Assembly (NCBI GenBank): GCA_963659595.1
Contig: CAVKUX010000001.1
Span: forward strand, 1-41,317
Reading direction: 5' to 3'
DNA length: 41,317 nt
From: Anaeroplasmataceae bacterium
GTDB taxonomy: Bacteria > Bacillota > Clostridia > Christensenellales > CAG-917
The notes below the pieces were generated by a model, which worked only from the letters and a program-made list of their open reading frames with translations, did no database searches and was not told where the DNA came from. Every line of letters starts with the position of its first letter. The first letter of the stretch is position 1. Below, piece after piece: positions 35,200 through 36,316 of this stretch. Both the position numbers and the translations under genes were made by a program.

Positions 35200-35246
35200 T
35201 TGGTAAGGATGAGGTCACCAGTTCAAGTCTGGTCATCAGCTCCAAA
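35200..35246 (+). repeat. attR core (47-bp copy of the tRNA-Thr 3' half)
   Basis: Identical to 25802-25848. It lacks the tRNA 5' half, so it is not a functional tRNA. Confidence 0.85.
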
Positions 35247-35277
35247 TCCGTGAACGAGATTCGTTCACGGATTTTTT
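35244..35277 (+). terminator. Displaced native terminator of tRNA-Thr (now following attR)
   Basis: AAATCCGTGAACGA-gat-TCGTTCACGGATTT, a perfect 14-bp stem followed by TTT. Confidence 0.75.
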
Positions 35278-35389
35278 CATTTCATTGTTTCCAATGAAAT
35301 GAATGCACGATTGTTCCAATCGTGCGGAGCGCTCGTCGTCATCGCACGGCGATTGAGAATACTTCGTGCTCTCATCGCCTTAGCTCGCC

Positions 35390-35554
35390 GTCATCAGCTC
35401 CAAAAACGCCATTTTTCGTGGTTTGTTCCGAAAATGGCGTTTTTCTTTACCTTTTTTACCCAAATTGACACTCGCAATGACCGCTTTTTGCACGTTTTTT
35501 GCAGAATCGTGTGTCAAAAGGGTGTCAAAATTCGGGATAAAAATCGCCGTAGAT
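35390..35554 (+). repeat. 165-bp exact duplicate of 25834-25998. It comprises the last 13 nt of tRNA-Thr, the element's left-arm terminator and the integrase 3' end.
   Basis: A base-by-base hand comparison shows identity over 165 nt. The sequences diverge on both sides. Confidence 0.85.
35525..35554 (-). pseudogene. Remnant of an integrase gene (last 9 codons IYGDFYPEF + stop)
   Basis: Identical to the 3' end of the intact integrase (25969-25998). The homology stops abruptly at 35554. Confidence 0.7.
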
Positions 35555-35602
35555 TTGTTTTGAATTCTTTTTTCTTAAAAAGCGCATAATATATCCAATG
35601 TG

Positions 35603-35631
35603 TTGACAATGGGCGCATGTTGTGCTATTTT
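35603..35631 (+). promoter_or_regulatory. Promoter of the RelB/ParE operon
   Basis: TTGACA (35603-35608), a 17-nt spacer, then TATTTT (35626-35631). A GAGGT RBS and the ATG at 35654 follow. Confidence 0.5.
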
Positions 35632-35653
35632 ATAGACAAAGTGAGGTAGTACT

Positions 35654-35953
35654 ATGAAAACAAGCGTAAATATCAAAATGGAAACCGACATCAGAGATTC
35701 TGCAAAAGCACTTTTCTCAGAACTCGGACTCGATATGACAACTGCTATCAATCTTTTTCTTCGCACGGCTGTAAAAGAGCAAGCGATTCCGTTCCCGATA
35801 GCAGCAACAACGTCGCAAAAAGCCGAAGAACGTTTCAAATCGTTGATAATGGCGGACATAAAGCAATCCGAAGCAGAAATCGAGAAAGGCAAAGCGGTAT
35901 CTTTCGAGGATGTATTCAAAGATTTGGGGGCAAAATATGGGGTTCGCAGTTAA
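35654..35953 (+). CDS. Type II antitoxin, RelB/DinJ family
   Basis: MKTSVNIKMETDIRDSAKALFSELGLDMTTAINLFLRTAVKEQAIPFPI matches the RelB/DinJ N-terminal RHH pattern. It lies directly upstream of, and overlaps, a RelE/ParE-like ORF. Confidence 0.85.
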   Translation: MKTSVNIKMETDIRDSAKALFSELGLDMTTAINLFLRTAVKEQAIPFPIAATTSQKAEERFKSLIMADIKQSEAEIEKGKAVSFEDVFKDLGAKYGVRS

Positions 35954-36245
35954 AATCACGCCGCACGCACTCGAACAAATCTCTGGAACGTTATCGTATA
36001 TCGCCGAAAAATTGCAATCGCCACAGGCTGCAAGCAATCTGCTCGGAAAGATTCGTGATGAATTGACGATAATCGGCGAATATCCTCTCTCAAAACCGAA
36101 AGTGTCTTGGGACGAATTGAGTGGAAAATACCGCAAATTTCTCATAAACAATTATGTCGGCGTTTATTCAATCAACGAGGAAGAAAAAACGATATTTGTT
36201 CTCGCATTCAGATATGCGCCGTCCAGTCTTGGTGACAGATTATAA
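35937..36245 (+). CDS. Type II toxin, RelE/ParE family
   Basis: 102-aa ORF from MGFAVKITPHALEQI, preceded by a GGGGG RBS. It has the typical ParE/RelE layout (...A..DL..I..YI........A..) and ends in ...TIFVLAFRYA. It overlaps the antitoxin stop by 17 nt. The ORF-track start at 35910 is less likely. Confidence 0.75.
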   Translation: MGFAVKITPHALEQISGTLSYIAEKLQSPQAASNLLGKIRDELTIIGEYPLSKPKVSWDELSGKYRKFLINNYVGVYSINEEEKTIFVLAFRYAPSSLGDRL

Positions 36246-36282
36246 AAGCAAGTTTCTACCTTGTGTTTGTCGTAATCGATTC

Positions 36283-36316
36283 AAAATCCGTGAGCGAAAT
36301 TAGTTCACGGATTTTT
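36283..36316 (+). terminator. Terminator after the TA operon; a diverged copy of the native tRNA-Thr terminator
   Basis: AAAATCCGTGA-gcgaaattagt-TCACGGATTTTT closely resembles 35244-35277. It is preceded by cgtaatcgattca, which resembles the tRNA 3' end ggtcatcagctcc. Confidence 0.6.

Follow-up and report, generated by a model that had tools for sequence, protein, structure and literature searches.

The window analysed here, a stretch of 41,317 nt from contig CAVKUX010000001.1 of an Anaeroplasmataceae bacterium (assembly GCA_963659595.1), contains a tRNA-Thr gene occupied by a ~9.4-kb integrative element (element A) and, directly beyond the right end of A, a segment carrying a relB/parE toxin-antitoxin (TA) pair. 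Two generations of elements are likely to lie at this locus, A itself and the relic of an older relative, element B, that would have lost int, xre and its structural genes and kept its addiction module; both would belong to one family of small (10-12 kb) elements of gut Clostridia that bear an integrase and are probably inovirus-like. An original prediction made from the letters of the window had read the segment in this way, and this core reading is supported by the cassette found in intact relatives of A, by the homology of the arms and by relics in genomes that are free of A. The features on which the argument draws are the following.

25771-25846, + strand: tRNA-Thr(GGU), the integration target (ARAGORN and Rfam; ggt anticodon call)
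25802-25848: attL copy of the 47-nt att repeat, the 3' part of tRNA-Thr (exact-repeat search)
25834-25998, no strand: left arm (LA) of element A and copy 1 of the exact 165-bp repeat, with the 13-nt tRNA end, a bidirectional terminator, two GTGTCAAAA repeats and the integrase stop plus 9 codons
25955-25963 and 25966-25974: the GTGTCAAAA repeats in LA, putative arm-type integrase sites
25849-35199, no strand: resident element A, ~9.4 kb, with tyrosine integrase, HTH_3 repressor and P-loop protein
25969-27201, - strand: tyrosine integrase of A (open reading frame (ORF) and profile match)
35200-35246, + strand: attR of A, a 47-nt exact copy of the 3' part of tRNA-Thr
35244-35277, + strand: T1, the native tRNA-Thr terminator hairpin, directly 3' of tRNA-Thr in G031, G027 and G011
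35278-35402, + strand: remainder of the repeated unit U, made of hairpin 1 (35278-35301), hairpin 2 (35305-35325) and segment X (35326-35402)
35390-35402, + strand: terminus of X, GTCATCAGCTCCA, a putative tRNA-end-like pseudo-attB (comparison with relatives)
35390-35554, no strand: relic left arm (LA') and copy 2 of the exact 165-bp repeat, with the core, terminator, two GTGTCAAAA repeats and the last 9 integrase codons plus stop
35511-35519 and 35522-35530: the GTGTCAAAA repeats in LA'
35555-35653, + strand: deletion junction CGCCGTAGAT / TTGTTTTG..., left T-rich repeat of the cassette (to ~35578) and cassette promoter
35603-35608 and 35626-35631, + strand: promoter-like site upstream of relB, TTGACA (-35), 17-nt spacer and TATTTT (-10)
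35654-35953, + strand: relB antitoxin, 99 aa, RelB/ParD-DinJ family (Pfam, NCBIfam)
35937-36245, + strand: parE-like toxin, 102 aa, predicted ParE-type fold, 17-nt overlap with relB (Pfam)
36246-36345, + strand: right edge of the relic, with a few nt of cassette tail, a degenerate tRNA-end-like 13-mer (36272-36284), hairpin T2 (36283-36316) and a hairpin-1-like stretch

The probable relic and its duplicated arm

The full tRNA-Thr gene was borne out by both ARAGORN and Rfam, and repeat searches confirmed the 47-bp copy of its 3' part as well as the duplication of the left arm, in which 25834-25998 and 35390-35554 are identical over 165 bp; this 165-mer occurs exactly twice in the 1.79-Mb assembly. 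The identity breaks off at 35554/35555, the abrupt end that had been claimed, and the integrase ORF bears out that the duplicate takes in the stop and the last nine codons of the integrase. Exact matches to GTGTCAAAA within the window are confined to the two arms, two in each, and these pairs would be arm-type integrase sites. Judged by its sequence, LA' amounts to an attL-like half-site of the putative element B.

The relic arm ends at integrase codon -9, where it abuts the left repeat of the cassette (CGCCGTAGAT / TTGTTTTGAATTCTTTTTTCTT). This LA'-cassette junction is common to the window and to the relics of the G011-type and G004-type genomes, which argues for one ancestral internal deletion of ~9 kb. 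On the other side of the pair, homology to elements stops a few nt past the parE stop codon. Here T2 had been taken for a diverged copy of T1, and this is borne out: terminator scoring of the window called terminator-like hairpins at 35244-35274 (T1) and 36283-36315 (T2), the two are 82-88% alike, and the repeat search returned a 45-nt repeat at 82% (35232-35276 and 36272-36316). The att-core direct repeats of the relic match at 13/13 positions on the left (35390-35402) and at 8/13 on the right (36272-36284), with the T1-like hairpin and the hairpin-1-like stretch lying beyond the right one. The degenerate tRNA end that had been proposed at this right core is not significant by its 8/13 match alone; it gains weight from the homology that runs on through T2 and the hairpin-1-like stretch. 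Read together, the features at 36246-36345 look like part of a unit U that has diverged, comprising tRNA end, T1 and hairpin 1.

To follow the relic across relatives, 36 same-genus genomes and other members of the order were searched with window positions 35200-36560, and the matching loci were retrieved and mapped. The locus was found in the following states.

State a: tRNA-Thr followed by T1 only (G031, G027)
State b: T1, then 1-3 copies of the ~146-bp unit U (G017, G009, G035, G003, G029)
State c: as b, followed by a stretch of ~140 nt with homology to the integrase-proximal arm (LA'), truncated at the equivalent of 35531-35533, with no relBE (G015, G020, G036)
State d: tRNA-Thr-T1-U-LA'-relBE-T2-GDPD, collinear with window 35200-37695 at 92-94% identity, with no element A (G011 and G004-type)
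State e: state d plus the 9.4-kb element A at the 47-bp att (window)

One contig, G011:C8, carries the whole of tRNA-Thr-T1-U-LA'-relBE-T2-GDPD contiguously at 93.6% identity to window 35200-37695, and searches with RelB homologues confirmed state d in at least 11 independent contigs, including L045, L046, L049 and the G004-type L039 and L043. Comparison of the site across relatives thus provided sites empty of A, in the G011-type and G004-type sister species, with the relic at the same locus. The segment 35247-36316 therefore predates A. The proposal that this segment might be ancestral sequence with no link to any element holds in its first half, as the segment is ancestral chromosomal sequence relative to A, and fails in its second, as the relationship to elements is clear. 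With the same deletion junction in at least three species-level lineages, the relic is to be regarded as old on sequence grounds.

Two rearrangements were seen at this locus in relatives. In G004 (L024 = G004:C3 1-60; L025 = G004:C5 1-60) an insertion with terminal inverted repeats (GGTGAATTATACTTTCAAGTGCAACAC / GTGTTGCACTTGGTTTGACAAATCACC), probably an insertion sequence element, splits hairpin 1 of unit U, and the contigs break there. In L023 (G031; 8560-9011), L021 (G036), L020 (G020), L022 (G029) and L030 (G027), the cassette of tRNA-Ser and tRNA-Thr genes together with the relics is inverted relative to the flanking LRR-protein and GDPD genes, and palindromic hairpins of the T1/T2 type lie at the borders of the inverted cassette.

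The relBE cassette and the element family

Intact relatives of A carry the relBE cassette (equivalent to window 35558-36246/36250) at 91-94% identity in their right arm, just before attR. The original prediction had suggested looking for intact relatives with a relB/parE pair, and many such A-family elements turned up in gut metagenomes, with the pair at their right end. The G029 genome has a 12.8-kb element in the same tRNA-Thr, in the order int ... pI-like ... relBE; after relBE come ~130 nt of right arm, a 47-nt attR, T1 and U. G015:C53, G001, G018 and ten metagenome contigs (L054-L063) show the order int, HTH, ..., then proteins of 186 aa, 326 aa (pI-like), 94, 145, 133 and 75 aa, then RelB and ParE. 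The relic matches this family on both sides: LA' corresponds by homology to the integrase-proximal arm in A and in the G029 element, and relBE to the right-end cassette of more than 10 intact elements. In the elements, G029 among them, the ~0.7-kb cassette lies between two imperfect T-rich direct repeats.

Cassette-bearing elements have integrases of either 410 aa or 436 aa and use differing tRNA 3' ends as att sites, which indicates that the integration module may be exchanged modularly among relBE-bearing members of the family. Different tRNA 3' fragments were seen at the ends of G015:C53 (L026, 1-306), L054 (10593-10800) and L056 (10598-10900), together with the 436-aa instead of the 410-aa integrase, and TGTCAAA-type repeats recur near the att sites of these three elements. 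In two contigs (L059 9902-12335; L061 8985-11418) parE runs into an attP-type junction, composed of right arm, tRNA 3' piece and left arm, and then into the integrase gene. These relBE-attP-int contigs indicate a circular or tandem form in gut metagenomes, and the family is therefore active.

The resident A has no relBE cassette. Its remaining features of note are the following.

27269-27661, - strand: HTH_3 repressor (profile match)
31970-32950: P-loop protein with a weak Zot/pI match (Zot E=0.0074, below the cut-off)
35063-35086, + strand: cassette-empty site in the right arm, AATTCTTTTTAGGTCCTTTTTCTT, a single T-rich repeat

The single T-rich repeat of A seems to combine the two repeats found on either side of relBE in relatives, which suggests that A may have lost its cassette through a repeat-mediated deletion. 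We consider A to be probably inovirus-like. A prophage of that kind would be expected to have a pI/Zot-type morphogenesis ATPase, a rolling-circle replication initiator, small coat proteins and a genome of ~5-15 kb; the sizes in the family of A (9.4-12.8 kb) fit, the Zot match is weak, and one relative (L055) has an inovirus-type gene with a REP_ORF2-G2P domain. The family found no match in PHROG, none among GenBank phage sequences searched with the pI-like protein, no relatives in IMG/VR scanned with the integrase and with ParE, and no match among PLSDB plasmids searched with the relBE cassette. An exact-protein look-up of the window's integrase found one 2.6-kb Logan contig. The analysis also delimits a family of small integrative elements of human-gut Clostridia, not deposited before and probably filamentous-phage-like, that usually carry a relBE cassette.

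Both proteins of the pair were assigned by profile. RelB scored 24.8 bits against Pfam PF04221 (cut-off 22.4), 66 against NCBIfam NF050811 (cut-off 60) and 60.2 against TIGR02384 (cut-off 45.65), and ParE scored 30 bits against Pfam PF05016 (cut-off 23). The toxin had no NCBIfam match and no significant sequence match in the PDB. An AlphaFold2 model of it (pLDDT 86) was compared by Foldseek, which ranked PfiT of the PfiAT complex best; PfiT and ParE toxins gave TM scores of 0.72-0.78, and RelE 0.47-0.59. The toxin is thus predicted to have the RelE/ParE superfamily fold, of the ParE type. ParE toxins target gyrase, and RelE toxins target ribosome-bound mRNA. The operon layout, with antitoxin before toxin, a promoter-like site of its own and a terminator-like hairpin, is kept in all relatives. 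The promoter claimed 5' of relB/parE was found as the promoter-like site at 35603-35631; its likeness to the rightward promoter at 27680, offered as weak evidence, is indeed only 72% over 32 nt, and the sequence comparison assigns the putative promoter to the relBE cassette itself.

Among the relic copies of the three lineages, dN/dS was 0.06-0.13 for relB and 0.09-0.18 for parE. Both genes have therefore been kept by selection after the death of the element. Because they stayed under purifying selection, they are probably expressed and at work as a type II TA system of the chromosome, with a ParE-fold toxin. The description of the relic as simply decaying is not borne out, given this selection and the presence of the relic in at least three lineages. 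In one G004-type assembly (L039 2934-3107), the relic parE has a premature stop (W58*) and relB is intact, amounting to toxin inactivation in one strain.

Proposed history of the locus and alternative readings

Unit U (~146 bp) consists of a T-like hairpin, hairpin 1, hairpin 2 and the ~75-nt segment X, and it is repeated 3' of tRNA-Thr across the genus, in 1-4 tandem copies (2-4 in G029, G035, G017, G009 and L046, the last with four). Arrays of it lie at L046 9087-9620, L022 (G029) 3600-4311 and L029 (G035) 7000-7620. The genus comparison shows that the unit closes with GTCATCAGCTC[C]A, which imitates the tRNA 3' end; the last letters of X are GTCATCAGCTCA, nearly identical to that 3' end, even where no element arm lies beyond them (G029, G003, G017, G009). 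The original prediction had described three tRNA-Thr ends of decreasing length. The 13-bp copy at 35390-35402 is real, and the shrinking att series is not, as the copy is the native end of unit U and is present without an arm. The old element most likely took the 13-mer at the end of unit U as a secondary att site (pseudo-attB). The diverged partial unit U at 36272-36345 is as expected if B inserted between the last X and the next partial unit. Rfam has no family for the hairpin/X unit U, which may stem from old att scars or from a duplication of the tRNA tail. The idea that the unit is a dispersed repeat was rejected, since the genome of the window has just one copy of it; a decayed tRNA-Thr as the origin of X was considered, and the likeness is limited to the common 3' end.

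The two arms in the window differ at 0/165 positions. In the sister relics, the arm differs from the arm of A at 19/166 positions in G011 and at 10/168 in the G004-type, including a four-base loop indel, and the G011 core is scrambled; the flanks of the relic differ by 3-12% between the window and the G011/G004-type genomes. Because sister relic arms differ from the arm of A at 10-19 of ~166 positions, the perfect identity in the window is not accounted for by descent, and it points to a recent homogenisation of the attL arm of A and the relic arm, unless it is an effect of assembly. Gene conversion would be the most likely route, or otherwise repeated crossover between the direct repeats. The loop variant without GTAG is common to LA and LA' in the window and to the G011 relic, and the available other A-type arm is that of G029 only; with this one arm, the direction of conversion, from A to relic or from relic to A, is undecidable from the loop indel. 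An apparent excess conservation of the 3' half of LA' in relics was dropped, as its 3-6 differences per 100 nt make it no more conserved than relBE. The perfect direct repeat could support a RecA-dependent deletion of A, T1 and unit U that leaves tRNA-LA-relBE, and the relic arm could give the integrase of A a second attL-like partner.

We propose the following history. In the background state, which the comparison within the genus shows, tRNA-Thr is followed by T1 and by at least one ~146-bp unit with an end like the tRNA 3' end. Element B would then have integrated at this pseudo-att, bringing its integrase-proximal arm directly behind the 13-mer, and its cargo would have been the usual right-end, self-promoted relB/parE cassette of the family. 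An internal deletion of ~9 kb, whose junction is seen in the sequence and whose cause we infer, would have fused integrase codon -9 to the left repeat of the cassette, and the right arm beyond the cassette would have been lost too. That relBE alone survived may be because a stable toxin and a labile antitoxin penalise loss of the pair. As the relatives show, the relic was inherited by at least three species-level lineages with relB and parE under purifying selection, and in the lineage of the window a cassette-less relative, A, then entered the genuine tRNA-Thr site (47-bp att) upstream of it. Lastly, the relic arm would have been made identical to the arm of A, most likely by gene conversion, giving the 165 bp of perfect direct identity.

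Several points weigh against this account. The right core is only 8/13 like the tRNA end and the last ~130 bp of the right arm of B are missing, which calls for a second deletion or for long decay. In G015, G020 and G036, LA' stands without relBE, which may have been lost there or gained later here. The cassette tree, a polytomy, contains a clade of G004-type relics, a clade of the window and G011 relics and a clade of elements; it gives no branching order among them and does not show the relics to be monophyletic. The exact repeat exceeds common assembler k-mers, which makes it a spot prone to mis-threading, and an alternative threading, with a tRNA-LA-relBE chromosome plus a 9,556-bp circle, has identical k-mer content. 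The inovirus nature of the family rests on weak matches (Zot E=0.0074 and the one G2P domain in relative L055). Exact-protein look-ups of the window's RelB, ParE and GDPD, aimed at same-species strains, returned nothing on record.

The first of the alternatives would divide the relic into two independent events, with LA' as an old arm relic and relBE, a module bounded by T-rich direct repeats, acquired afterwards from a passing element through recombination at these repeats. The three species with LA' and no relBE would fit such an order; the cassette is a module that otherwise similar elements either have or lack at one and the same point, with imperfect ~20-bp repeats on both sides and in company with varied integrases and right arms; and the relic copies are no closer to one another than to element copies. 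However, LA' in these three species stops 21-23 nt short (35531-35533) and gives way to unrelated DNA, which could equally reflect further deletions, and no recombinase or target duplication is tied to the chromosomal cassette. The junction also lies exactly within the integrase reading frame, as the internal deletion of one element predicts, and we regard a two-event origin as unlikely.

The second alternative concerns the identity of the arms. As an effect of assembly, the relic arm might truly differ as it does in the sister species, or the population might consist of tRNA-LA-relBE chromosomes plus a free 9.6-kb circle. The genome is a metagenome-assembled genome (MAG) of 175 contigs, its relatives were assembled with k<=141, below the length of the repeat, all k-mers are common to both threadings, and 0/165 differences is an outlier against the 10-19 in relatives. 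An assembly artefact is nevertheless an unlikely source of the 165-bp duplicate, because the junction of X with the 13-mer and arm has only 8 nt in common with the sister-type junction, too few for a graph artefact, and because the window-specific loop variant TGGTTTGTTCCG, which lacks the GTAG of G004 and G029, lies at most 45 nt from the X junction. Independent support for a genuine branch point comes from a Logan contig (run SRR13434591) that is 100% identical to 25969-28608 and breaks off precisely k-1 = 30 nt into the repeat, where a graph of that run with this branch point would make it stop. Junctions 35389/35390 and 35554/35555 moreover need real spanning reads, and the G011-type and G004-type genomes have the T1-U-LA'-relBE order on single-copy sequence. 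An assembly effect in either form thus appears distinctly unlikely. The reverse direction, in which relBE and the adjacent arm are native to the chromosome of the clade and were captured by elements through imprecise excision, would fit the conservation of the segment at one chromosomal locus in three species under purifying selection, but it is highly improbable, as the cassette in elements lies inside the right arm upstream of attR with no T1 or unit-U sequence and turns up, across many metagenome contexts unrelated to one another, in elements whose tRNA sites and integrases are of at least three kinds, and as relBE is absent altogether from 30/37 searched genus genomes.

Within the preferred reading of a relic of element B beside a younger relative, the relic may have a role. 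Defective prophage remnants carry type II TA modules, and an anti-addiction role has been put forward for chromosomal TA copies (review, PMC2654758). The window shares with such cryptic-prophage modules that the addiction module outlives its mobile element and becomes chromosomally fixed; by analogy with the anti-addiction idea, the chromosomal antitoxin here, ~94% alike in DNA to that of circulating elements, could neutralise their toxin. The cassette is present in 3/4 close family members in the genus, the fourth, A, being in the only host of the four with a chromosomal relBE, and a search of the genus genomes found no family member at all in the relic hosts G011 and G004. This distribution fits an anti-addiction role (PMC2654758), although the fit is anecdotal and speculative. 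A stronger form of the idea, which we hold to be doubtful, is that the relic is a domesticated anti-addiction and decoy locus rather than passive debris, in which RelB would neutralise the ~94%-identical ParE of incoming family members and gene conversion with one new resident after another would keep the attL-like arm (core plus two GTGTCAAAA sites) fit for recombination. If this were true, hosts could lose elements, and elements could shed the cassette, as A seems to have done via the flanking repeats; it would also explain the perfect 165-bp identity here and the mosaic arms in the sister species.

Comparison with known systems and neighbouring features

The closest studied case is PfiT/PfiA, a TA pair of the filamentous prophage Pf4 of Pseudomonas aeruginosa (PMC7264888; PMC13048266; PDB 9w3a). 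In both cases a toxin of the ParE/RelE superfamily with an upstream antitoxin is accessory cargo at the end of a filamentous-phage-like element by a tRNA att site, and PfiT is the best structural match of the toxin model of the window (Foldseek E=6e-7, TM 0.76). In contrast to PfiT/PfiA, sequence identity to PfiT is only ~22%, the antitoxin of the window is of the RelB/DinJ type, and the host is a MAG of Gram-positive-type gut Clostridia. The pair of the window also lies in a relic without phage genes, beside a resident element without the pair. Among integrated inoviruses with tRNA att sites, type II TA pairs recur as accessory genes, all but one of the pairs being in proteobacterial inoviruses (Roux et al., 2019; PMC6813254). 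The family described here is, unlike these, from Clostridia, and it is absent from the searched IMG/VR and GenBank phage sets.

Tyrosine-integrase elements form genomic-island arrays at tRNA genes, in which older elements decay 3' of newer ones. The window resembles such arrays in its successive elements at one tRNA locus and its direct repeats of the tRNA 3' end. It differs in that the older element appears to have used the tRNA-end-like 13-mer of a locally amplified ~146-bp unit and not the tRNA, and in that the arms are 100% identical though the relic is much older than the resident element. TA modules that persist in prophage remnants and element arrays at tRNA genes are both textbook patterns; the new points here are this element family, a pseudo-att that lies on a locally amplified unit, and an arm homogenised without a mismatch. 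The locus thus illustrates current understanding and does not change it, being an ordinary kind of genomic fossil that is well resolved. It offers a clean multi-species case of a TA pair that outlives the element that delivered it and stays selected in the chromosome beside a younger relative, and a testable set-up for cross-neutralisation (anti-addiction) and for recombination between the resident element and the relic arm.

Two further observations concern the DNA upstream of tRNA-Thr. Three tandem units of ~114 nt (83% and 68% identity) run into tRNA-Ser at window 25404-25744; ARAGORN gives a functional tRNA in the last of them only, and their copy number varies among relatives. Window positions 1023-22427 hold one ORF of 7,134 aa, whose 3' end is 84-91% conserved in relatives and which is followed by three small conserved genes.

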